From the IMG/VR virus record IMGVR_UViG_3300036985_007129, positions 1 to 32,529 of that record: a stretch of 32,529 bases of DNA. One strand, given 5' to 3'. The notes under the pieces were generated by a model. The model had not been told where the DNA came from. It made no database searches and saw nothing but the letters and a program-made list of their open reading frames with translations. Below, piece by piece: positions 1,899 through 26,679 of this stretch; the stretch's first letter is position 1; each line of letters opens with the position of its first letter. The translations under genes and the position numbers were made by a program. Source of the stretch: a virus. Taxonomy: Duplodnaviria > Caudoviricetes.

Positions 1899-2221
1899 GG
1901 TGTCTCCTTCATCACGCAGACGATTGCGAGTCGTCCGCTTGTTTGCTTGCGGGTAGTTCCGTTCGGCACGATGCAGCCGAGCCGTCGCAGGTCGCTGCAC
2001 CGTTTCCAGTATCCGGTGAGTCGCAACCCGGCGGCGCTGGCCGCTTCCTCGTCAGTCAGGCCGTCGTGCCCTGCCTGTCGGTACGCGTTCAGGAGCGCCA
2101 CGGCTTGCCCTGCGGCAGCCGTCACGGTGACGGCGGCAATTCGGCTTGTCACAGGATCGGACGCCCTGGCGTTGCCCGTGGTCATTTGGTCAAACAGACT
2201 TAGCATCGGTGTCGTCGTCAT
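1886..2221 (-). CDS. Winged-helix DNA-binding protein
   Basis: ARASDPVTSRIAA N-terminal motif, then GLTDEEAA...YWKRCSDLRRLGCIVPNGTTRK..SGRLAIV, a pattern typical of small phage wHTH proteins; GAGGAGGAAGACG RBS before ATG at 2221. Confidence 0.7.
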   Translation of the reverse strand: MTTTPMLSLFDQMTTGNARASDPVTSRIAAVTVTAAAGQAVALLNAYRQAGHDGLTDEEAASAAGLRLTGYWKRCSDLRRLGCIVPNGTTRKQTSGRLAIVCVMKETPCAT

Positions 2222-2624
2222 CGTCTTCCTCCTCTTCTTCTGGTTCAAGTTGCGCCTCGAGCGCTTCAAGGTCGTGCTCATCAAGCACGGCGTATTCCTC
2301 GAGTTTGGTTTGCGCGGCTTCGCACAGGGCAATCGATTGCACGGCGTGTGGACTGATGGCAATCCATTCGATCCAGCCGACGAGGAAGTGGTTCTCGCAA
2401 ACAACCACATGACCGCAGCACAGTTCGTCATCGGCATCGATGTCATTAGCCAAAGCGGTTGTGATGTCCGCTGTTTCGACGGCGCGCAACTGCGCAAGCA
2501 GCACACGGAAGTTGGATTCATCAACCGTGTTTGAGTCTCGGCAGCGAGACACGGGCGAAACGAGAAACCCGTCCCATCGTTCGCCGTGGTAGTAGCGCGG
2601 CATCTTCCAGGGTTGAAGACTCAT
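2190..2624 (-). CDS. Phage hypothetical protein with very acidic C-terminus
   Basis: RDS...ESNF, HFLVGWIEW and LEEYAVLDE motifs; EPEEEEEDDDDDTD tail; GGGAGG RBS. Confidence 0.75.
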   Translation of the reverse strand: MSLQPWKMPRYYHGERWDGFLVSPVSRCRDSNTVDESNFRVLLAQLRAVETADITTALANDIDADDELCCGHVVVCENHFLVGWIEWIAISPHAVQSIALCEAAQTKLEEYAVLDEHDLEALEAQLEPEEEEEDDDDDTDAKSV

Positions 2625-2818
2625 GTTGCCTCCCTGCTGAGTTTGACGTTAGAGAGAAAGCAGAAAGCAATTCTGACTTTGCCGTCATGCGGAACATGAA
2701 GCACATCGACATGGCCGATGACCTCGCCCGCAATCGAAACGATCATGCGATCGCCCTCACGGCATTCGCGGTTGATGCATCCCGCGCCCGGAAGTTTCTT
2801 GCGTTCGATGGACTTCAT
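2621..2818 (-). CDS. Divergent CsrA/RsmA-like small RNA-binding protein (65 aa)
   Basis: REGDRMIV...VDVLHV..GKVRIAF.....VKLSRE aligns by eye to CsrA RVGETLMI...VTVLGV..NQVRIGV.....VSVHRE; GGGAGG RBS. Confidence 0.55.
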   Translation of the reverse strand: MKSIERKKLPGAGCINRECREGDRMIVSIAGEVIGHVDVLHVPHDGKVRIAFCFLSNVKLSREAT

Positions 2819-3072
2819 CGTGTGCCTCCCTGACGGGCGGCAGGGCGTTGCGCCCCGCCGGCCCGCTTAGTCGGGGAGACAGCCGCGTCGTGCGGTTCCG
2901 ACGGGTCAGAGTCTACAACGCGCCACTGATTCATGCGCGTCACCCATTGAATGGCGGCGAGCTCATCCGTGTCAGCCGCGGCAAGCCGTGCGGCAATCTT
3001 GGCAAGACCTCGAGCAACGACGGGCGAGTAGTGCGGGCGGCGATTGATGTTGAGCGGTTGCCCGTGAATCAC
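2815..3072 (-). CDS. Hypothetical protein
   Basis: GTG at 3072 overlapping the upstream TGA (GTGA), preceded by AGGAGG. Confidence 0.6.
   Translation of the reverse strand: MIHGQPLNINRRPHYSPVVARGLAKIAARLAAADTDELAAIQWVTRMNQWRVVDSDPSEPHDAAVSPTKRAGGAQRPAARQGGTR
2833..2866 (-). promoter_or_regulatory. GC-rich hairpin directly upstream of the RBS of the CsrA-like gene
   Basis: GGCGGGGCG-CAA-CGCCCTGCC stem (one G-U), extendable by GCGGG/CCCGT; ends 2 nt before GGGAGG. Confidence 0.45.
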
Positions 3073-3299
3073 TGAGAGCCTCCTGTTGGAAATACGAAAC
3101 GAGTGACCTCGCCGACAACCTTGCCCTGGTCGTTGCACTGCGCAACGAACACGGTGTCATACGGCGGTTGTTCAGTTGTGACGACGATCATGGAGATTGT
3201 CCACGAGTCACCGGTGACTTTGACCGTGAGGCCTTCTCTCGAGGTCCACAGGCGTGATGACGATCCTGACTTGCTGACGATGGTTGCGCGTCTAGGCAT
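3069..3299 (-). CDS. Hypothetical beta-rich early protein
   Basis: 76-aa ORF with GGAGA RBS and conserved leader hairpin. Confidence 0.7.
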   Translation of the reverse strand: MPRRATIVSKSGSSSRLWTSREGLTVKVTGDSWTISMIVVTTEQPPYDTVFVAQCNDQGKVVGEVTRFVFPTGGSQ

Positions 3300-3329
3300 G
3301 TTGTCTCCGAGTCTGCAGCATCGTGCTGC
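3300..3329 (-). promoter_or_regulatory. Start-associated hairpin repeat (GCAGC-ACGAT-GCTGC + AGACTCGGAGACAAC-ATG)
   Basis: Hairpin 3315..3329, 15 nt upstream of ATG at 3299. Confidence 0.85.
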
Positions 3330-3334
3330 GGTTT

Positions 3335-3368
3335 GAAAGGCAGGGATTGCGTTCCCGCAATCCGTGCC
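3335..3368 (-). terminator. Terminator-like hairpin after the Gp157 gene
   Basis: GGCA-C-GGATTGCG-GGAA-CGCAATCC-C-TGCC followed by only a short TTTC; weak U tract. Confidence 0.5.
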
Positions 3369-3372
3369 GTGG

Positions 3373-3897
3373 TCACTTTATGCTGATGCGGTTTCCGCGT
3401 TCGCCGATCGATGCAAAGGAAACTTCTTTGCCGTCGGTCATAGCGGCGCGGATGGCGTCCTTGTTGACGCTGAGGATTGTCTCGGACTTGACTGCCCACG
3501 ACGGCAACTCATCCATGCCGACGCGGATGTGCAACGGTGCCTTGCCGCCGTTGTTCACCAGACTGACTTTGAAATGGTCCGTCTGCACGGGCTTGAGTCC
3601 CTTGGTTTCGAAGATGAAGCGCAAGCGCTCGCGCAGCGCGTCGGCGGCCTTTGTGTCTGCCTTGACCAGGGCAGCAATCCGGTTGGACTCAACCAGCCGT
3701 GCGTCGGCGCGGGCTTCGATGTCGGCGATCAATCGAACGTAGGCATCGACCTTGCCCGTGAGGTCGGTTTCCAATTCGCGTTCCCATGCTTCAACGGCAA
3801 TGGAAACGGAGACATCTGAGATGTCTCCGTCGTTCTCGAGGAGCAGGGCCTCGAGCGCTTGCATGTCTGATCCAATTTCATAGAGGGTGCGTGCCAT
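3373..3897 (-). CDS. Siphovirus Gp157-family (Gam-like) protein
   Basis: MARTLYEI..., KVDAYVRLI, ESNRIAAL, FKVSLVNNGGKAPL, VNKDAIRAAM..GKEV.FA...RGNRISIK; start at 3897 follows the leader repeat. Confidence 0.85.
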   Translation of the reverse strand: MARTLYEIGSDMQALEALLLENDGDISDVSVSIAVEAWERELETDLTGKVDAYVRLIADIEARADARLVESNRIAALVKADTKAADALRERLRFIFETKGLKPVQTDHFKVSLVNNGGKAPLHIRVGMDELPSWAVKSETILSVNKDAIRAAMTDGKEVSFASIGERGNRISIK

Positions 3898-3929
3898 GTG
3901 TGTCTCTCGTTTCTGCAGCGTCGTGCCGC
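3898..3929 (-). promoter_or_regulatory. Start-associated hairpin repeat (GCGGC-ACGAC-GCTGC + AGAAACGAGAGACACAC-ATG)
   Basis: Hairpin 3915..3929 with one G-U pair, 17 nt upstream of ATG. Confidence 0.9.
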
Positions 3930-3931
3930 GT

Positions 3932-4198
3932 TCACTGAGCAAAGAGGATTGTATCGCCGAGTTCAGCAATGATATCGTTTCGGTTGTAGTTCTCGAGCTC
4001 AAGCGTGTCCTCTTTGCTGACCTCAATAAACTCGCAGCAGAGGGCAATCACGTCAAGCTCGATCGGTGAGCCGCTGTCTTCCTCGAGCGCCTCGAGGTGG
4101 TTGAACATGGCTTCAAGTGCTGGACGGCTGAACTGGTCTCCGCGTCCAGCGGTCTTGAAGGCGTTCTCAAAGTCGGACAGGTAAACCTTGATGATCAT
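3932..4198 (-). CDS. Acidic small phage protein (FS..ALEA.F..LE...ELDVIALCCEF type)
   Basis: 88-aa ORF flanked by leader repeats; about 19 D/E versus 6 K/R. Confidence 0.8.
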   Translation of the reverse strand: MIIKVYLSDFENAFKTAGRGDQFSRPALEAMFNHLEALEEDSGSPIELDVIALCCEFIEVSKEDTLELENYNRNDIIAELGDTILFAQ

Positions 4199-4229
4199 GG
4201 GAAGTCTCGTTTCTGCAGCGTCGTGCTGC
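4199..4229 (-). promoter_or_regulatory. Start-associated hairpin repeat (GCAGC-ACGAC-GCTGC + AGAAACGAGACTTCCC-ATG)
   Basis: Hairpin 4215..4229, 16 nt upstream of ATG. Confidence 0.9.
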
Positions 4230-4237
4230 GGTAGTGA

Positions 4238-4561
4238 TTAGATGACGGTCAGGATGCTGATTGGATGCGCGGACCAGTGCTGCCAAGCCTCATGAGCAAA
4301 GGCATCGCATTCATCGGTGCCGTGCTCGCTGACGTCGATGATTGCGGACATGGCTTCAACCATTACGCCGAGCGTGTCCGTGTGTTGGTTCGATGCGCAG
4401 TCCATGAGGCAGACCGGTTTCTCGGATGCGTTCACGGCGAGCACGGTGATGTACGCGGCTTCGCCGAGTTCCGTGAACAGTTGTCTGCCAAACTTCTTGG
4501 CCGTGCGTTCGATGTTGGCGGCGTAAACAACGGGGTGATTCTTGAGGTTCGTGAGGTTCAT
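4238..4561 (-). CDS. Hypothetical early protein
   Basis: 107-aa ORF between two leader repeats. Confidence 0.8.
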   Translation of the reverse strand: MNLTNLKNHPVVYAANIERTAKKFGRQLFTELGEAAYITVLAVNASEKPVCLMDCASNQHTDTLGVMVEAMSAIIDVSEHGTDECDAFAHEAWQHWSAHPISILTVI

Positions 4562-4591
4562 CTGTGTCTCGTTTCTTCAGCGTCGTGCTGC
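4562..4591 (-). promoter_or_regulatory. Start-associated hairpin repeat (GCAGC-ACGAC-GCTGA + AGAAACGAGACACAG-ATG)
   Basis: Hairpin 4577..4591; its terminal TGA is the stop codon of the upstream ORF. Confidence 0.9.
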
Positions 4592-4780
4592 GTTGAGGAT
4601 CATCGTGCGTTGAATGCTTGGCGGCATGCGGTGCGCAGCCGTGAAGTCGTTGATTGAGTCGTTCCAAACAAGAACGCGGTTTCCGTCTTTGACCAAGCAC
4701 CGGTGCGCCTTGACGATTCCGTCAAAGAAAGCAATGCAACGGACTGAGGTCATTTCAATAGGTTGAAGAGGACGGGTCAT
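4577..4780 (-). CDS. Hypothetical early protein
   Basis: 67-aa ORF between leader repeats. Confidence 0.75.
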   Translation of the reverse strand: MTRPLQPIEMTSVRCIAFFDGIVKAHRCLVKDGNRVLVWNDSINDFTAAHRMPPSIQRTMILNAARR

Positions 4781-4810
4781 CTGTGTCTCGTTTCTGCGGC
4801 GTCGTGCCGC
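4781..4810 (-). promoter_or_regulatory. Start-associated hairpin repeat (GCGGC-ACGAC-GCCGC + AGAAACGAGACACAG-ATG)
   Basis: Hairpin 4796..4810, 15 nt upstream of ATG. Confidence 0.9.
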
Positions 4811-4816
4811 GGGTGA

Positions 4817-5314
4817 TTAGCGAGCAAGGAAAGCCGCATCGTTGCAGGCTTTGCGTGCTTCATCAAAGGACTTGAGCAATCGGCGTGCAGTCATATCAGC
4901 AACTTCAAATGCTTGGTCGGCTTCCCACTTTGCGCGACGTGCTTGATCGCGTTGGTCGCATGATGCGTGATAGTCGGACTGCGCTTTAATCAATGCGCTG
5001 CTAGCAGCGGCAAGCAATGCCCACGGGTCCGTGGTCGGTTCCATCGTTGGTGTTGCAGTCACGACGGTCAGCACTTCATAGACGATGGTCCGCACGATGC
5101 GCTTGCCACAAGTCGGAACATTGGAAATCAGGTTTCCAACCTTGTACCGATTGTCAGCGCGGAAGATTGCTTCAGCGAAGTGCTTTGCATCAACTCCCGC
5201 GCCCTCAGTCTTCGCAAAGCGCAGACGGGTGTGGCGGATTCCGTTGACCTTCGTCTCGAGCACTTGATCGCGGTTCTTTGTTGCTGCCAAGACATTGATT
5301 GTGATCGTTTGCAT
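4817..5314 (-). CDS. Hypothetical early protein, paralogue of 5351..5827
   Basis: MQTITINVLAATKN...CGKRIVRTIVYEVLTV plus C-terminal coiled coil. Confidence 0.8.
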   Translation of the reverse strand: MQTITINVLAATKNRDQVLETKVNGIRHTRLRFAKTEGAGVDAKHFAEAIFRADNRYKVGNLISNVPTCGKRIVRTIVYEVLTVVTATPTMEPTTDPWALLAAASSALIKAQSDYHASCDQRDQARRAKWEADQAFEVADMTARRLLKSFDEARKACNDAAFLAR

Positions 5315-5344
5315 GTGTGTCTCGTTTCTGCGGCGTCGTGCCGC
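5315..5344 (-). promoter_or_regulatory. Start-associated hairpin repeat (GCGGC-ACGAC-GCCGC + AGAAACGAGACACAC-ATG)
   Basis: Hairpin 5330..5344, 15 nt upstream of ATG. Confidence 0.9.
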
Positions 5345-5350
5345 GATGGT

Positions 5351-5827
5351 TTAGATAGCAAGCCGTGCTTCGCAAGCCTTGAGGTCTGCCGCGTCCAATG
5401 CCTCGTTGGCAAACATCAATTCCCTGTCAGCCTTGTACTTTGCACGGAGTGCTGCGTCGCGCTTGGCGAGCATGATGCAGTAGTGGCTCTGCGCTTGGTC
5501 ATATGCTGCTCGAGCAGCAATCTCCCTTTCGGTCCGCACCGAAGGCGCAACCGTCAGGACCTTGAACACGAAGCGACGCACGATGCGCGCGCCGCATTCT
5601 GGTGTGGTTGCCTCGCTTGGAACGAGTTCTCCAACGATCAACCCGCCGAGGTTTGCTGCGCTTGGTGCGTTGCTCAGAAGGGCTGCCGCGAATTGCTGCG
5701 CAGCGAGTTCAGGAGTCCGACCGAAAGCCATGAAGAGTTGAGTCTCGCGCAAGCCCATGAACTGGACTGAAAGTTTGCGACCAGTGTTCTTCGTTGCCTT
5801 GAGGAGATTGACGGTGATCGTTTGCAT
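5351..5827 (-). CDS. Hypothetical early protein, paralogue of 4817..5314
   Basis: MQTITVNLLKATKN...CGARIVRRFVFKVLTV plus C-terminal coiled coil. Confidence 0.8.
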   Translation of the reverse strand: MQTITVNLLKATKNTGRKLSVQFMGLRETQLFMAFGRTPELAAQQFAAALLSNAPSAANLGGLIVGELVPSEATTPECGARIVRRFVFKVLTVAPSVRTEREIAARAAYDQAQSHYCIMLAKRDAALRAKYKADRELMFANEALDAADLKACEARLAI

Positions 5828-5855
5828 GTGTCTCGTTTCTGCGGCTCCGTGCCGC
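5828..5855 (-). promoter_or_regulatory. Start-associated hairpin repeat with ACGGA loop (GCGGC-ACGGA-GCCGC + AGAAACGAGACAC-ATG)
   Basis: Hairpin 5841..5855, 13 nt upstream of ATG; loop contains the ANGGA core of CsrA sites. Confidence 0.9.
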
Positions 5856-5874
5856 GGTTTCTTTGACTAGGTGA

Positions 5875-5905
5875 ATCATAGCGAGCAACAGGCAAGTGGA
5901 AGCAC
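5875..5905 (-). promoter_or_regulatory. Candidate sigma70-type promoter for the early cassette array
   Basis: TATGAT -10 at 5875..5880 in an AT-richer intergenic gap; no convincing -35 at 17-bp spacing. Confidence 0.4.
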
Positions 5906-5964
5906 TTTGCTACAAAGTTTGAGAAGTTTCTAGGAAATGTTGGAAATGGGCTCTGGTTGACCAG

Positions 5965-6046
5965 AAACGCGTGTGGGGAGCCCGGTTCGCGGCAGACCAA
6001 TCGGGCTAGCCGAATGCTCGGATGCCCCACAGGTCATCCTAGAGCC
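5965..6046 (-). repeat. Dispersed non-coding element, inverted copy (GGCTCTAGGATGACCTGTGGGGCATCCGAGC)
   Basis: Reverse complement of 6012..6046 matches 436..470 at 26/35 positions without gaps. Confidence 0.65.
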
Positions 6047-6587
6047 CTTGCTTGGCGGCTGATGATCGACGCGACGGCGGCAGGGTTCGCGACCAGAACA
6101 GCCGCGCCGACATGCCATCGACGTTTCGATCGCGGGCAAGGTCGGAAACGGCGAGCACCCACGTCCTAGGCCACGCGCCCGGGTCGCCGTCAGGTCGATG
6201 CCATCCAAGCGACTCGAGGAAGTGCACTGCGGTTTCAATCGTGGCAGCATCGATCGATGCAAGGTCGCGCCGTACGGCAAACCATTCCATGTCGACTCTG
6301 CTGACGCCAAGATCCATGTCAATCCTCGCCTGATGGCTCGCCACGTCTCTGCGTCTCTCTGCAGCAGCCGTTGACTCGCAATCATGATACTCGCGAAACT
6401 TCGATGGAAGGAATCGACCGAACGTTCCGCCGAAGTCGAGCGCGTACTGGTTCAGCGCAGCCATGCAGACGGCACAGTCTTTGTCTCGCATCCACCGGAC
6501 ATGCAGCGCAAAGATGTCTTCATCCATCGCGCCGCCGAAGAGGGCTCGAACCCTCAGACACAGCGCTGCTAGTTCAATCGCATTCAT
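6039..6587 (-). CDS. Hypothetical protein, possibly replication-associated (helicase loader-like N-terminus)
   Basis: 182-aa ORF with helical N-terminus ending in an F-x-P motif, downstream of a REEKRREEK linker, where lambda P/G39P-like genes usually sit; function is inference. Confidence 0.6.
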   Translation of the reverse strand: MNAIELAALCLRVRALFGGAMDEDIFALHVRWMRDKDCAVCMAALNQYALDFGGTFGRFLPSKFREYHDCESTAAAERRRDVASHQARIDMDLGVSRVDMEWFAVRRDLASIDAATIETAVHFLESLGWHRPDGDPGAWPRTWVLAVSDLARDRNVDGMSARLFWSRTLPPSRRSSAAKQGL

Positions 6588-6816
6588 CGTCTCTCTCTTC
6601 TCCGCGTCGTGCGGAAGTGTCTAGGAGATAGAGAGATAGAAGTTCTTTCTCTTCTCTTCTCTTCTCTTCTCGTCGGCAAGGCCTCGTACATGTATTGCCC
6701 TCGCGAGCGAAAGTACATGGGGAAATGTCTGGATTGTTTGAAACTCCCGTATACCTGACCAAGTTTCCTGAGAATGTGGCGGATGCAATTCCTTGCACCC
6801 GCCACCGGTGAGTCAT
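6574..6816 (-). CDS. Short ORF containing REEKRREEK; possible remnant of a replication initiator/origin region
   Basis: ATGA overlap at 6813..6816; low-complexity product. Confidence 0.3.
   Translation of the reverse strand: MTHRWRVQGIASATFSGNLVRYTGVSNNPDISPCTFAREGNTCTRPCRREEKRREEKELLSLYLLDTSARRGEERDDECD
6588..6615 (-). promoter_or_regulatory. Start-associated hairpin with a different stem (TCCGC-ACGAC-GCGGA + GAAGAGAGAGACG-ATG)
   Basis: Hairpin 6601..6615, 13 nt upstream of ATG at 6587; same loop, outer three pairs changed. Confidence 0.8.
6646..6671. repeat. (CTTCT)n pentamer tandem repeat, about 5 units
   Basis: tttct cttct cttct cttct cttct c. Confidence 0.9.
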
Positions 6817-7172
6817 CGAAGGCATGATGCCCTGATGGCCATGATGGATCGCAGAGCACGATGAACCAGGTCGAATCGGATAGATGGGTCGCACGACTCC
6901 CATTGCACCTCTCGCCTGATCACCGTTGATTGCGACAGCCGCAGCGCCCGAGCAACGGCTCCGCGATTCGGGCGAATGTGCAGAGGCATCAAGTCGTAGA
7001 CGACTCCAACTCGAGCAATCGTACGGCAGTGCTGCACGGCTGCATCGGTAGAGATGATTGCCGCCGCTTCAACCGCTTCGTGCAGCGTGACAGCACGGAA
7101 GACGGATGCGTCGTCTTGCGAAACGCCGAGCATGTGACGGACGCACGCTGGTCCGATGATGCCGTGCCTCAT
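6813..7172 (-). CDS. Hypothetical protein with possible C-terminal HTH
   Basis: ATGA overlap with bet stop; [18 protein letters not shown] resembles an HTH. Confidence 0.6.
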
Positions 7173-21058: not shown

Positions 21059-21721
21059 TCAACCGTAGAGCGCACCACGGCGACGTGCAATCTCTTGCTG
21101 GACGATCGCCTTGACATCAATCGGCGCGACGGCTTTCTGAGTTGAGCCCGCAAACGGAATCTCAACAACGATCGTGGTGCGTTTCGGCATGTCGATATTG
21201 AAGAACCGCTTGACCGCCAGCGGGGACAGGATTCCTTTGCGCACGGCTGTGATCAGCGCGTCAGGATTGCTTTGCAGCGGAGCAAGTGAAATCTCGAGCA
21301 ACTTCCATCGGCTGTAGACGGTGTGCGCCGAGTCGCCGTACTTCTTGCGATCGATGTCAGTTGCCCTGCGCATGCCATTCTGCTCAGACACATAGCCGAC
21401 GCTGATTCCCTTGACGATGCCTTGTCCGACGAGGGCAGCAGCAACATCAGGAAAGAACTCGCCCGTGTAGTTCTCTGGCCGCTTGGCAAAGACGAAGTCT
21501 CCAACGATGTCTCTGTCGCGGCGACGCAACTTGACGGCTTTGCCAACGGGCTTGCCGTAGTCGTGATTCCAGAACAGCACAGGGTTGAGGTCAAACTCCT
21601 TGCTGTTCATGCCGGCGGGGATCAAGACCTCGCCGTCTCGATCAATGGTTTCGGCGGTGATGACTGCGGTGAATCCGCTTGCCGTGCCTTCGATGTTTGC
21701 AGAGAGAGTCTTCTTGATCAT
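21059..21721 (-). CDS. Prohead maturation protease, HK97 family
   Basis: IDRDGEV, NPVLFWNHD, GISVGY, LLEISLAPLQSNPDA. Confidence 0.93.
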   Translation of the reverse strand: MIKKTLSANIEGTASGFTAVITAETIDRDGEVLIPAGMNSKEFDLNPVLFWNHDYGKPVGKAVKLRRRDRDIVGDFVFAKRPENYTGEFFPDVAAALVGQGIVKGISVGYVSEQNGMRRATDIDRKKYGDSAHTVYSRWKLLEISLAPLQSNPDALITAVRKGILSPLAVKRFFNIDMPKRTTIVVEIPFAGSTQKAVAPIDVKAIVQQEIARRRGALYG

Positions 21722-23112
21722 TGCGATTCCTCGTAGGGTCCGTCCTGTGCTGCTGCTTCGGCTTCCATTTCCTTGATCACTGCTTCATAGTCGTCGATGA
21801 GTCTCGGCTGCATGGAACATCGGCAATTCGGGTGGAGCGGAGGACCGTCGATTGCTTCATAGTCCAGGATCATTTCGTTGTCATCTGCGCCCTTCAGAAT
21901 CTCGCCTTGCGCAAAGAACGCATCGTCGATGCCAACGGACGTCTCGCCGAACATTTCAGAAGCAGCCTCGCAGAACTCGCATGGGTCAGGTGCCAGCAAC
22001 CAGGTCTTGCCCTCAACAAGACCGGTTGAACGCCACGCTTCAGACTCTGCTTTGCGGCTTGCCCTGTTGGCTTCTGTGCGCGCAATGGTCAGAGCGCGCG
22101 AGCGTGTTGAGCGCTCTGCGTCGCCTTTCTTTCCTGCCCATTCCATCACGCGAGAAGAGAGTTGCTGCGCCGTCTCGCCTGCTTGAATGCCTTCGCCGAG
22201 CAAGGTCTTGACCTTCACGGCTGTGTACTGCTTCACGCCGCGGGCAATGCCTCGAGCAAGCCTCACCGATTCTGACTTGACGTAGGCGTCAAGGTTTGCC
22301 GTCTGCGGGTTGAAGTCAGGGACAGACGAAGCCAGTTTCTTGATGGTTTCAAAGCCGAGCGTGATGCCCTGCTGTAGCGAGCGCTGCAAGTACGGACGCA
22401 TGGCCTCAACGAGTTGCCTGTCCCACTTCGAGCTCATGAGCATTTGCTCAACCTCGAGCGTCAACTCAGGTGTTGGGACAATTGACGCATTCAACTTCTT
22501 CATGACTGCATCAATCTGCTTGCGAAGAATCTTGTCAACCGCCTTTCCGATTGCCGTCTCGTCTTTCGTGATGTTGTCAAACTCGTTTGCTGCCGTGCTT
22601 GCTGACGGCTTTCGTGCTGCTTTGCAGACCATCGAATCATAAGACCACATGTTTTTGTGAGACACAACGCGTGTTGATTCGCAGCCGCATCCGCACGAAG
22701 CGCTCTTGGTTCGGCGGACTGGCTTGACCTTTGCCAACTTGGGATCGCTCGAGGATGCGTACATGGAGGAGAGAATGTCGTTCATCTCTGCCTCCGACTC
22801 ATTGCCCTTTGCGTCGCGCAACGTGAAGAATTGCCGCCGCTCGAGTCGGCTGTTTGGATTCTCCGTGCGAGTAGAAACCTCGGTATATCCCATTGCCGCC
22901 AGACCTGCGCTGAACTGGTCCACAGTCATCCGTCGAGGATTTGCGGGTATTGCGGCATCGTGCTTCTTCGGAGCGCTCAGGGACGGGCTAGGTGGCTTCA
23001 CGTCGGCGGTAGCACTTCCTCCGTCTCCGCCGCCGCCGCAAGAATTGCCGGGCTTGAAGCCACCCGCTCCACTCCCACAGTCCTTCTGCAAGTCGACAAA
23101 GTTGTCATTCAT
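21718..23112 (-). CDS. Head morphogenesis protein, MuF/SPP1 gp7 family, with N-terminal extension
   Basis: RALTIARTEANRA, KTWL...DPCEFC, PPLHPNCRC. Confidence 0.9.
   Translation of the reverse strand: MNDNFVDLQKDCGSGAGGFKPGNSCGGGGDGGSATADVKPPSPSLSAPKKHDAAIPANPRRMTVDQFSAGLAAMGYTEVSTRTENPNSRLERRQFFTLRDAKGNESEAEMNDILSSMYASSSDPKLAKVKPVRRTKSASCGCGCESTRVVSHKNMWSYDSMVCKAARKPSASTAANEFDNITKDETAIGKAVDKILRKQIDAVMKKLNASIVPTPELTLEVEQMLMSSKWDRQLVEAMRPYLQRSLQQGITLGFETIKKLASSVPDFNPQTANLDAYVKSESVRLARGIARGVKQYTAVKVKTLLGEGIQAGETAQQLSSRVMEWAGKKGDAERSTRSRALTIARTEANRASRKAESEAWRSTGLVEGKTWLLAPDPCEFCEAASEMFGETSVGIDDAFFAQGEILKGADDNEMILDYEAIDGPPLHPNCRCSMQPRLIDDYEAVIKEMEAEAAAQDGPYEESQ
23017..23085 (-). repeat. Peptide repeat KDCGSGAGGFKPGNSCGGGGDGG at the MuF N-terminus
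   Basis: 22/23 aa identical to 24421..24489. Confidence 0.95.
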
Positions 23113-23293
23113 CTTTCTTTACCTTTGATTGAGCAAGCACGATGTCGTATGCCTCATCAGGATCCATGCCATCCGCCATCAGCCGAGCCAGTTCGCGCAG
23201 TGCAACATCGTTGTTGAGGTTGCTCAGGAAACGCTCTTCGGCTCCGGGTAGAGATTCGTCTTCAATATCTGGTGGATTGAATTGCTTTGCCAT
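23105..23293 (-). CDS. Small acidic protein, 62 aa
   Basis: GGAGA RBS, TAATG overlap with the portal stop. Confidence 0.75.
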   Translation of the reverse strand: MAKQFNPPDIEDESLPGAEERFLSNLNNDVALRELARLMADGMDPDEAYDIVLAQSKVKKDE

Positions 23294-26200
23294 TAGTTTG
23301 TCTCCAAGTGCTCAACATCAACATGCAAGACGCCACTCTTGTCAAACTCACTTGTTTGCCTCCACTCCTTTGAGACAATTCTGAATCTTCCACCACGCGG
23401 GAGAAGCACTTCTTTTTCATCTGATTGACGTGCGTATTCCTCTGATATAGGAAGACCTTGACGCGTTGAGATTCTCATCAGCACTCTTGCTGGTGTATTC
23501 CCACCTGTTGCATCAATATCACTGAACTGAGTGAAGGCGATTGCTGTCTTCACATTTGTTGTTGTGCTCACAAATCCGCGATCGGTAAATGTAGAACCAA
23601 CTCCCATTGCATCAAGTGCTTTCAGCGCTGCAACATCTTTGAATCCTCGATAAACAGGAATTGGCTTTTCTCGCAGTTCACTGCGAGTGGCAACATCAAG
23701 AGCAGCAATCTCCATAGATATTTGTTTGCCTGTGTTGTTGAAGCCACTTGTACTTGATCCCGTTCTCAACGCTGCATTTATTTTTGTGTATCCGTCAGAT
23801 GAGTAACTTCCCAAAGCAGCAATTGCCATTGGAGTGTTACTTACTACTGAACGCTGATTTTTAGTGAGTTCAGGATATTGAACTTCCTTCCATTCTTCGC
23901 TGACGCCAACTCGCATTGCACTTGCTGGTGGTGGTGTTCCAGGAGTTGCACTTGGTCCTGCTGTTTTTGCGTCAACAGGTTTCGTTGGTTGATCTGCTGC
24001 AGCACTGAACTTGCTCTGCTGCTTTGGAGGAGCAGTTGGCTCAGCATCGATCGGCGCAACCTTCGATTGCGAACCTGACTTGGCGGGCTTGATGAAGCCG
24101 GCGGCAATTGCTTTTTCCTTTGCAGCAATGCCAGGATCGTTCTTCAGAGTTGCTGCTTTAGCCTTGTTCTCTGAAGCAGATAGAACAATGCCAAAGTCAT
24201 TGGCAACAGATTCACGCTGCCCTGCATCCATTCTTGAAAGCGCTGCCGCTGCATCTGTCTTTGCATCGGCTTTCGACTTTCCTTCAGACTCTGCTAGAGC
24301 CCTCAGGACGGCATACAACTTTGCATCGCCTACTGTTTCAACTACGTCCTTTGGATAGTTGGCTTTGCTCATCCAGTCACCTGGTTTTTTTTTTCCTTCT
24401 GATGATGACTCTGCATCTCCACCGCCGTCTCCTCCACCTGCGCACGAGTTGCCCGGCTTGAATCCACCAGCGCCGCTTCCGCAATCTTTGGTCTGCACAT
24501 CTGATGATCGAGCTCGATCAAACTCATCGCGCTTGCGCTTCGACCACGACCAACCTTCGTCGCCTCCCCATCCGTTCCATGCTTGCCATCCCTTGCCCTG
24601 CTCATCCCACGACTCGCCCTGCTTGTCGACTTCGTGCCGCTCGAAGTAGGCAACCATTCGACGGATGGTTTCCTCGGACAACGGCGTCCTGTTCTGAAGG
24701 TCACGCGCGCGCGCAATGCCGACAGAGGTCATGCCGCGTTGCGACTGAGGTGCTTCGGCTCGAACCTCAAGCGCGCGTCGCGCGTTGTCGGCAACTGACT
24801 GCGGAGGGGTTGTGTCGATGTCCTCGAGCGACTTGGTCTGACCGTCATCGCACATGGAGATTGCAATTGCGATTGCCTGCTCGCGGTCATATCCCTCGTC
24901 AAGCAGTTTGCCAATCTTCTCAGACGTGCATTGGTTGCTTGCTTTCTCGATTGAACCACAGGCGCAGTTTGCTCCTGCACACTTGGCAACGATCGGCACT
25001 GCTGCTGCTGGCGGTTTCTCTTGCTGCTGCTGCTGCGGCGTGATAGGAGAAAAGATGGATTCAATCAGTTGCGGGCTGACAGACGGGAACGCAGCCGACG
25101 CAATTGCGCGGACCGAATCAATGGGCAACTCGGCAAGCGCTGCCGACCGCGCGAGTCCAATCAGGGATGAGATTTGCGCGCCGTTCAACGCGGCTGCCGC
25201 CGGGGCATCAATGGCTACCGCAGGGGCATCACCCGACGGCGCTGCTTCACCCGTGACGGGAGCGCTGGTTGGTTGGTCAATCGGGCTGATTTGCTCGCTC
25301 TCAGCCGCCGGCGTGGTTGGATCGGCAATGGGAAGCGCTTCAGGCTGACTAGGATCGCCTGTGGGACCTCCCAATGGTTGGTTGCCCATCAGTAGTCTGT
25401 CGGCGGCGGGGTCCTCAGACGCGTCCAGGCCGTTCCGTGTGCGAGCCTCGTTCACGGTCATGATGCCGCCCGCAACCGACGACCGGTTCTTTTCAAACTC
25501 AAACCGCTCATCGGACAGGACAGGATTGTCATAGGCGAGGAACGCGTCGCCTTCGATGTTGAACATCGGCAGCAGATTCTGATTCAGGACCTCTTCGTCC
25601 ATGCGCAGAAGCGGGAGGATGGTGTTTGCCTTCCAAGCAGCAAAGCCGATGGTCGCCGACGCAAGGTTTGGATCGTTGGCTTTGAGCATGCTGACAGGCA
25701 CGCCAAACACGGCGGCAATCTCTTCAACGATGTCAGTGCGTCCCTGCAAGTCCTTTGGCGGAAACGACAGCGGCTTGATGTCGATGTCAGCCGATGCCGT
25801 GAGGAATCGACCCGCGCGCTTTGACCCGCGCAACTTCTCTTCAATCTGCTTCTCGAGCCGATCCATCTCTTCCGTGCTCACCATGCCCTTGATGGTCATG
25901 AGCCAATCAGGTCGCGCCTTGTTTGCGAAGAAGTGATAGTCCATCGAGTGAATCTCGTCGTTGGACATGATTGCACCCCACGCCGCTTCCGCTTTTCCGA
26001 TGCCGTAGTAGAGGTCGTTGGGATTCGGTCGCTTGAAGTGGATGACCTCTTCAGCAGGAAACAGGCGGCGCTTGTCTCGCTCTGCTCCGTACAAGTAGCC
26101 ATCAATGAAATCAACTTTGCCCGGAACAATCTCCACGAACTGCGAGGGCATTGTCCAGAGCTCGACTGGAATGCCTAATGCCTTGTCAACGACAGGATGC

Positions 26201-26679
26201 AAGTAGGCGTTGCCCGTCAACTCGGTGTACAGGATGCGCAGCACCGTTGCGTCGAATCCATTCTGATAGGGATTGACCTTCTCGAGCAAGTCTAGCACGG
26301 GATGATTCTCTGTCACCACTTCGTAGTTGTCGCCGTACTCCGCTGCTTTGCGAATGACATGGCGCGACGGAAGATGATCGAGGTCGCCGGCGTGGAACGC
26401 CTTGACGCGCGCCGAAACCGACCGCGTCTTCCAGAGTTTCTTCTTGCCGTCGCGCGATCGCACGTACAAGCGCAACGGTTGAGAAGCAACGGCAACCGCA
26501 TTCAGGTTTGCAGCCGCGTACACCCAAGACGAGTACGACCGAACGGCAGACGCGTAGGAGAAAGGTTGCCGCTTCCCTTCATCACCCATCACAATCTTTG
26601 AGGACGCAGCCATGTAAGCGGCATTGCTGGTTGCAGTCTTCGAGCGCACACGAGAAAGAAAGCGTTCGATCATGTTCAT
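23293..26679 (-). CDS. Portal protein (HK97-like) fused to extra modules and a C-terminal VIP2/Alt-like ADP-ribosyltransferase
   Basis: Portal motifs HPVLDLLEKVNPYQ, LTGNAY, EEVIHFK, EEIAAVFGVP, GIMTVNEAR; ART motifs YTKINAALR, VYRG, GFVSTT, EKEVLLPRG. Confidence 0.92.
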   Translation of the reverse strand: MNMIERFLSRVRSKTATSNAAYMAASSKIVMGDEGKRQPFSYASAVRSYSSWVYAAANLNAVAVASQPLRLYVRSRDGKKKLWKTRSVSARVKAFHAGDLDHLPSRHVIRKAAEYGDNYEVVTENHPVLDLLEKVNPYQNGFDATVLRILYTELTGNAYLHPVVDKALGIPVELWTMPSQFVEIVPGKVDFIDGYLYGAERDKRRLFPAEEVIHFKRPNPNDLYYGIGKAEAAWGAIMSNDEIHSMDYHFFANKARPDWLMTIKGMVSTEEMDRLEKQIEEKLRGSKRAGRFLTASADIDIKPLSFPPKDLQGRTDIVEEIAAVFGVPVSMLKANDPNLASATIGFAAWKANTILPLLRMDEEVLNQNLLPMFNIEGDAFLAYDNPVLSDERFEFEKNRSSVAGGIMTVNEARTRNGLDASEDPAADRLLMGNQPLGGPTGDPSQPEALPIADPTTPAAESEQISPIDQPTSAPVTGEAAPSGDAPAVAIDAPAAAALNGAQISSLIGLARSAALAELPIDSVRAIASAAFPSVSPQLIESIFSPITPQQQQQEKPPAAAVPIVAKCAGANCACGSIEKASNQCTSEKIGKLLDEGYDREQAIAIAISMCDDGQTKSLEDIDTTPPQSVADNARRALEVRAEAPQSQRGMTSVGIARARDLQNRTPLSEETIRRMVAYFERHEVDKQGESWDEQGKGWQAWNGWGGDEGWSWSKRKRDEFDRARSSDVQTKDCGSGAGGFKPGNSCAGGGDGGGDAESSSEGKKKPGDWMSKANYPKDVVETVGDAKLYAVLRALAESEGKSKADAKTDAAAALSRMDAGQRESVANDFGIVLSASENKAKAATLKNDPGIAAKEKAIAAGFIKPAKSGSQSKVAPIDAEPTAPPKQQSKFSAAADQPTKPVDAKTAGPSATPGTPPPASAMRVGVSEEWKEVQYPELTKNQRSVVSNTPMAIAALGSYSSDGYTKINAALRTGSSTSGFNNTGKQISMEIAALDVATRSELREKPIPVYRGFKDVAALKALDAMGVGSTFTDRGFVSTTTNVKTAIAFTQFSDIDATGGNTPARVLMRISTRQGLPISEEYARQSDEKEVLLPRGGRFRIVSKEWRQTSEFDKSGVLHVDVEHLETN
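24385..24394 (-). repeat. A10 homopolymer inside the portal gene
   Basis: GGA AAA AAA AAA CCA on the coding strand. Confidence 0.9.
24421..24489 (-). repeat. Peptide repeat KDCGSGAGGFKPGNSCAGGGDGG inside the portal
   Basis: 22/23 aa identical to 23017..23085. Confidence 0.95.

Follow-up and report, generated by a model that had tools for sequence, protein, structure and literature searches.

A divergent candidate CsrA-like phage gene and the A..GA leader hairpins associated with it

Background

Can a phage encode an RNA-binding regulator together with the hairpins that it reads? This question is raised by a gene of 65 codons at 2621..2818 on the minus strand of the window, i.e. of the whole 32.5-kb virus record analysed here (99% complete). 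The first-pass annotation had proposed a CsrA/RsmA-like protein with altered specificity, acting on hairpins in the leaders of neighbouring genes and on its own leader. The role of csrA genes for the phages that carry them has been described as an open question for which loss-of-function tests are called for (PMC7366521). Since a candidate protein, its candidate operators and its own leader occur here in one genome, the function is directly testable, in vitro or in E. coli.

Portal, capsid, terminase, protease, RecT and Gp157-like genes are encoded in the window, and the CsrA-like gene and the leader hairpins sit within a cluster of small minus-strand genes. All leader elements of the window given below lie on the minus strand. 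Related phages carrying the gene family are uncultured, have genomes of ~31 kb and share 3-15 genes per locus. The 14 loci retrieved with ORF 2190..2624 had only that gene in common, and a Gp157 query gave no match among viral contigs. As for the structural genes, the portal protein (23293..26679, minus strand, 1128 aa) carries an ADP-ribosyltransferase domain (PF03496, E 3e-13) fused to its C-terminus and has a short Gly/Cys-rich motif in common with the MuF-like protein encoded at 21718..23112.

The commonest Shine-Dalgarno (SD) sequence of minus-strand window genes was GGAGAC, with GGAGGC also present, which suggests a host whose 16S tail would pair as GUCUCC; no match to GUCUCC was found in one paper on anti-SD sequences. 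A genome scan gave six hits, one of them in a Rhodobacteraceae MAG, and capsid matches were distant. The contig in this MAG (L097, 6.7 kb) carries both the gene and its own leader and may be mis-binned.

The protein family and its relation to CsrA

The 65-aa ORF was found as first described and proved to be a conserved gene. A full phmmer scan yielded 13 matches, namely eight short homologues and five long repeat proteins, and profile searches combined with the collected loci gave a family of 57 rows, some nearly identical, whose members occupy the same position in related phages. Single-protein queries of word-indexed proteins, viral contigs, PDB sequences and annotated phages returned nothing useful. 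No Pfam, PHROG or PDB sequence match to CsrA was obtained for the window protein in single-sequence searches, nor did a PF02599 search of the window's own record give a match; the protein falls below the PF02599 gathering cut-off (27 bits), while its best relative reaches 25.2 bits.

The connection to CsrA came from bridging members and from profiles. PF02599 was matched by three of the 16 locus-derived members scanned (L040, L023 and L065), with sub-cut-off E-values of 1.6e-5 to 1e-3. One of these, L040, scored 23.9 bits with a family profile built without it and also matched a CsrA-like PHROG (E 0.011). Comparison of the family with a nine-sequence CsrA alignment by hhalign gave P = 0.0033 and 0.0024 at a probability of 10-12% only, and a score of 17.6, above that of each of 100 column shuffles (highest 14.9). 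The best family-bearing match in the atlas was a CsrA cluster (47% of members, 0.80), which we treat as a lead only. Both structural models consisted of five strands without a terminal helix (pLDDT 84-88); the predicted strands (12-20, 24-29, 32-38, 47-55 and 58-63) have the spacing of CsrA, and the chain stops three residues past R62.

In the fold search, made with monomer models only, the best match had Z 4.0 and TRAP Z 3.9, while RsmN ranked 39th (Z 3.1, rmsd 3.0, 45 residues aligned), tied with unrelated folds. RsmN was the only CsrA-family entry among the fold matches listed for these models, which included no classical CsrA chain. As CsrA chains are intertwined within the dimer (PMC13443453), a monomer model is a poor fold query, and the missing classical chains are no evidence for another fold. 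The weak fold scores, with TRAP above RsmN, would agree with some other small beta protein; that the gene encodes one is highly improbable in our estimate, given the bridging sequences that tie the family to PF02599. Profile comparison, bridging relatives and predicted layout thus point, weakly and consistently, to the CsrA fold first proposed, in a helix-less form and at scores below the Pfam cut-off. CsrA ancestry of the family appears to us probable; the family lies outside PF02599 proper, yet is likely CsrA-like in action.

The residues best conserved among the 57 family rows were R17 (52), F54 (52), D55 (51) and R62 (44), and the window protein deviates at one of them (D55 > L). The profile alignment places R62 at CsrA R44, L60 at V42 and F54-L55 at A36-P37; by extrapolation over one residue, R17 would correspond to CsrA L4. 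As for the terminal R-E, which had been equated with CsrA R44-E45, both residues are present in the window protein, but only the arginine is kept by the family, E63 occurring in 6 of 57 rows.

Leader hairpins in the window

Besides that of the CsrA-like gene itself, eight leader hairpins were detected, with loops at 3320, 3920, 4220, 4582, 4801, 5335, 5846 and 6606. Each lies 5' of GAGAC and ATG, the genes being situated between 3299 and 6587, and the hairpins are placed 21-31 nt 5' of the start codons. The hairpin at 3315..3329, with loop ACGAT, precedes the ORF 3069..3299, which heads a chain of overlapping ORFs. Loop ACGAC is found at 3915..3929 before the Gp157/Gam-like gene 3373..3897, at 4215..4229 before ORF 3932..4198, at 4578..4590 before ORF 4238..4561, at 4796..4810 before ORF 4577..4780, at 5330..5344 before ORF 4817..5314 and at 6600..6616 before ORF 6039..6587. 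The remaining hairpin (5841..5855, before ORF 5351..5827) has a loop of canonical type, ACGGA. With the gene's own leader included, the nine loops comprise seven ACGAC, one ACGAT and one ACGGA, so that GGA occurs in one of nine putative target sites. ORFs 4817..5314 and 5351..5827 are alike in leader and N-terminus (5273..5321 versus 5786..5834, 80% over 49 nt), which suggests that a cassette was duplicated at the hairpin repeat.

Bare ACGAC was hardly enriched in the window (100 occurrences against 80 +/- 10); the signal is the context of hairpin plus SD and not ACGAC itself. The window-specific hairpin pattern was found in none of the viral contigs, and Rfam gave nothing at gathering score on 2500..7000, with four chance-level matches only. 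Neither a terminator-like T-run on the coding strand 3' of the hairpins nor a full promoter at the hairpins was called. Hexamers resembling a -10 box often precede the hairpins, with 28 hits at 17-25 nt among 65 leaders.

The leader of the CsrA-like gene

In front of the gene itself, a -10-like hexamer, TAGACT (2910..2915), for which no -35 was called, lies 24 nt 5' of the loop. There follow the hairpin CCGC-ACGAC-GCGG (2883..2895) and, immediately 3' of it, an anti-SD GTCTCC (2875..2880), invariant in 17 aligned leaders; then a long stem (2833..2866), variable in sequence but kept as a stem in relatives, and finally the SD GGAGGC (2824..2829), predicted to be paired (p = 1.00). The first-pass annotation had located hairpin and stem correctly; the stem turned out to be the inner part of a larger helix which pairs the anti-SD with the SD. 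This leader (2810..2910) folds at z = -4.0, with none of 200 shuffles as good, and values for the own leaders folded range from -1.8 to -8.0. Of 23 gene-bearing contigs, 22 retain this order of elements, the loop hairpin included. In the own-leader stem, one pair is swapped between C-G and G-C in 7 of the 17 aligned sequences. A TANNNT hexamer was present upstream in 22 of 22 folded own leaders, 20-26 nt 5' of the loop where measured, a count for which no null was computed. The SD was predicted to be paired (p >= 0.57) in 14 of the 18 own leaders with a value, and the other four have a second SD copy.

A conserved upstream ORF of 85 aa (2815..3072, no Pfam hit) extends across the leader and shares an ATGA with the start of the CsrA-like gene. 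Such a four-base overlap was seen in 17 of 18 cases, and translational coupling of the two genes is likely. Relative to the overlapping ORF, the anti-SD is found in each of the three codon registers (8/4/4), which indicates that it is kept at the nucleotide level. For the loop, 15 of 16 cases share a single register, so that coding constraint may contribute to its conservation in own leaders. Could the upstream ORF be the true reader? It is present in 21 of 24 gene-bearing contigs, but was not found in the fetched DNA of three relatives of one lineage (L039, L048 and L051) in which hairpins and gene are kept; we place this idea at the same very low level as that of an unrelated beta protein.

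The family of upstream ORF proteins starts with an RP-Y/H-L-S-like sequence. In one relative (L078:1586-3047), a DNA-methyltransferase-like ORF separates the conserved own leader from the CsrA-like gene, and the latter bears a hairpin of its own with a canonical ATGGAT-type loop; the same displaced leader was seen in L079.

The loop code across the family

Which features of the loops are common to the related phages? In 23 gene-bearing contigs, a loop of the type A..GA was found in 89 of 109 leader-located GC-closed hairpins, as opposed to 0 of 24 hairpins of the other strand and to 89 of 3484 at other places; the pattern, A-N(1-2)-GA-N(0-1), was defined after inspection of the loops, and the two inner stem pairs were fixed by the scan. 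Only A..GA is fixed family-wide. The base preceding GA is G in 46 loops, C in 24, A in 11 and T in 8, and canonical GGA is accordingly present in 46 of 89. The loops are mostly of 4-5 nt, with two hexaloops among the 89. Leader hairpins with AGGGT/AAGGT loops, which break the A..GA rule, were noted at L030:11732 and L062:2606, before ORFs of 174 aa. Another element, made up of a stem and a CTCCGCGCC-like motif 3' of it, recurs 20-40 nt before some of the leader hairpins in L023, L036, L030, L062 and L065.

Changes in the outer stem pairs leave the pairing intact, and conservation of the loop is confined to one strand; from this, an RNA hairpin rather than a DNA operator can be inferred. A DNA-operator reading was rejected on these grounds, i.e. 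covarying arms and a spacer conserved on one strand only. Might the hairpins instead be cassettes tied to promoters, unrelated to the protein and serving RNA stability, RNA processing or the shuffling of genes? They recur in front of small, variable early genes and frequently follow a -10-like box, and the PeSL cassettes of T4-like phages provide a precedent (PMC2839356). We nevertheless regard this as very unlikely: a terminator-like T-run is missing from the coding strand, it is the loop that is conserved and the stem that varies, the loop fits the grammar of CsrA sites, and the most elaborate copy is on the CsrA-like gene itself.

Canonical RsmE sites are C-G-closed A(N)GGAX loops, pentaloops such as RsmZ SL3 and SL4 included (PMC4005645). 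Half of the phage loops are therefore textbook RsmE sites, and the other half deviate only at the first G. According to the same report, the core loop bases are not substitutable in the CsrA fold (PMC4005645), so that half of the family loops would need an altered protein. The looped-out N of RsmE sites touches the C-terminal helix (PMC4005645), and the rarity of hexaloops fits the loss of that helix. In the RsmN-RNA complex, strand 1 reads the two adenines, strand 5 and its loop read the two guanines, and the first G packs against a strand-1 leucine (PMC3791407). By analogy, the two adenines read by strand 1 would be the invariant ones here, and the variable first G would be read mainly by strand 5 and its loop. 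The family changes at A36-P37 and L4 would then fall where the guanines of GGA are read, on an inferred numbering. The changed first strand had been suggested to shift the specificity. R17, placed by extrapolation at the first-G leucine, agrees with this in part, but strand 1 is expected to read mainly the invariant adenines. Moreover, ACGAT loops also occur in L040, whose strand 1 is more canonical, and hence do not depend on R17.

A strict switch, by which the protein of each phage would be specific to its own loop (here ACGAC) and form an orthogonal regulon, had been the original proposal. Loop spectra do differ among the phages (six of 20 all-GGA, three of 20 without GGA), seven of nine window loops are ACGAC, and the window protein carries the D55 > L change. 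On the other hand, GGA and non-GGA loops are mixed in 11 of 20 phages, and the window itself also has ACGGA and ACGAT. No residue tracked loop type (best p = 0.007 of 149 tests) and loop class showed no clustering on the tree of the proteins (a value as low was reached in 45 of 200 shuffles), in tests on 20 phages with three near-copy contigs left out. Copying of repeats can also yield uniform loops within a genome. The mixed loops, with neither a tracking residue nor clustering on the tree, indicate relaxed rather than switched specificity; the proposed change from GGA to ACGAC was not supported, and we regard a strict switch as improbable.

Association of the gene with the hairpins

Viral contigs were scanned for stem plus SD without regard to the loop, which gave 55 loci from 49 contigs. 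Loops of the A..GA type occurred in 30 contigs, 22 of which carry the CsrA-like gene. It was found in none of the 19 contigs with other loops (15 available as whole records, four as fetched DNA only). The co-occurrence that the first-pass annotation had proposed to look for is thus real. As the phages are relatives, it partly reflects common descent; several contigs are near-copies.

The first-pass annotation had also named hairpins kept without the gene as an argument against itself. Six of the eight gene-less A..GA contigs are only 17-78% complete and end at most 1.7 kb downstream. Another gene-less contig, L044, has no gene in common with the window. One nearly complete genome (G001/L032, 99%) has a single ACGAT hairpin and no confirmed family gene, and it counts against the gene-hairpin model. 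Conversely, in G024/L040 the gene is present and its own leader is absent. In L032, a more distant phage, a CsrA-looking ORF of a second kind was observed at L032:13456-13683 on the minus strand; it was not significant in the Pfam or the six-frame search.

A hairpin kept without a confirmed gene, as in L032, would be expected if a host CsrA-type protein were the main reader and the phage protein modulated it, for example by forming heterodimers, as the plasmid protein RsmQ does with host Rsm proteins (PMC9928087). The 46 canonical GGA sites among the 89 loops also suit such a host reader. GGA, needed by canonical Rsm proteins, is absent from eight of the nine window loops, and we find a host reader unlikely as the main explanation.

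Proposed mechanism

We favour a model in which a CsrA-derived, helix-less protein binds A-(N)-N-GA-(X) loops and represses the early genes and itself; its probability as a whole is, in our estimate, about 0.55. A helix-less dimer of CsrA type would bind these loops before small early genes, and the bound protein would block the ribosome, repressing early-gene translation as the protein accumulates. The first G of GGA would no longer be required in this reader, rather than replaced, with any base tolerated at its position, which would be a looser code than that of any CsrA tested. The dimer may bridge to another A..GA, located at a distance of 10-18 nt in the SD region. Among hairpin leaders, 56 of 64 had an A at 2-3 nt before the GA of the SD region; the figure for other leaders was 84 of 125. 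Covariation between loop and SD was not found, loop type failing to predict SD type (p = 0.46), and the second binding site is weakly supported. Self-feedback would run via the SD-sequestering leader and the overlapping ORF chain 3299 > 3072 > 2818 > 2624, which starts behind the 3320 hairpin and recalls the control of iraD by CsrA through translational coupling (PMC7652899).

The same protein and sites might also serve activation with positive feedback, by opening the SD-sequestering helix or by protecting 5' ends. The predicted pairing of the SD in most own leaders would suit this, many hairpins closely follow a -10-like box and hence lie near a predicted 5' end, and precedents exist in CsrA action at E. 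coli ymdA, where an SD helix is opened, and at flhDC (PMC7652899). In folds of the eight target leaders, however, the SDs are mostly unpaired or weakly paired, which leaves little for an activator to open. The hairpin stems also end within what we take to be the ribosome footprint, a further point against activation, which seems to us rather unlikely. At the own leader, default pairing of the SD is equally compatible with activation and with repression, and the direction of regulation there is the least certain step of the repression model.

As for the origin of the system, we can only tentatively suggest that a helix-less phage CsrA lineage dropped the need for the first G, and that phages such as this one shifted their operators to GGA-less loops, which would be unreadable by host CsrA; with a conserved, riboswitch-like anti-SD leader, these would make up a private, self-regulated translational regulon.

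Comparison with known systems

No description of the family or of the hairpin motif was found in the openly accessible literature searched. In mycobacteriophages, start-associated sequences are repeated elements before small non-essential early genes. The PeSL cassettes are likewise repeats before small non-essential early genes, but their stems are terminators (PMC2839356), whereas here the loop is conserved and a candidate reader is linked to it; the strong sigma-70 promoter plus terminator stem-loop that characterises PeSLs was not found at the window hairpins.

With CsrA, RsmA and RsmE (PF02599), the phage family has in common a predicted five-strand layout and an arginine at the R44 position, as well as C-G-closed A..GA hairpin loops just 5' of the SD and likely autoregulation. 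It differs in lying below the Pfam cut-off, in having no C-terminal helix in the models, in F-D for A36-P37 in most members and R at the L4 position, and in its putative sites, of which about half are without the first G and whose loops have 4-5 nt instead of six. RsmN/RsmF of Pseudomonas aeruginosa is also a CsrA relative without C-terminal helix; it possesses an internal helix and reads ANGGA (PMC3791407), while no such helix is predicted in the phage family.

CsrA homologues on mobile elements are represented by Bci/RsmM, CsrA-like proteins of Vibrio phages and RsmQ (PMC7546807, PMC7366521, PMC9928087). csrA genes linked to TldR are chromosomal and hence not relevant here. Most known phage and plasmid homologues are close to E. 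coli CsrA, unlike the window family: in the phage collection, 94 records match E. coli CsrA, 69 of them at an identity of at least 60%. Those tested are described as reading GGA (PMC7366521, PMC7546807, PMC9928087), and RsmQ, which binds GGA/ANGGA, has host genes as its targets (PMC9928087). In the accessible text of these reports, no phage-internal set of target hairpins is described (PMC7546807, PMC7366521, PMC9928087). Natural CsrAs vary in target tolerance, but the GGA region is still required by the two that were studied closely (PMC13443453). Binding of the phage protein to GGA-less loops, if it occurs, would be at odds with the idea that the A(N)GGA code is dictated by the CsrA fold (PMC4005645); the protein could then also serve as a small regulator of translation beyond the reach of host CsrA.
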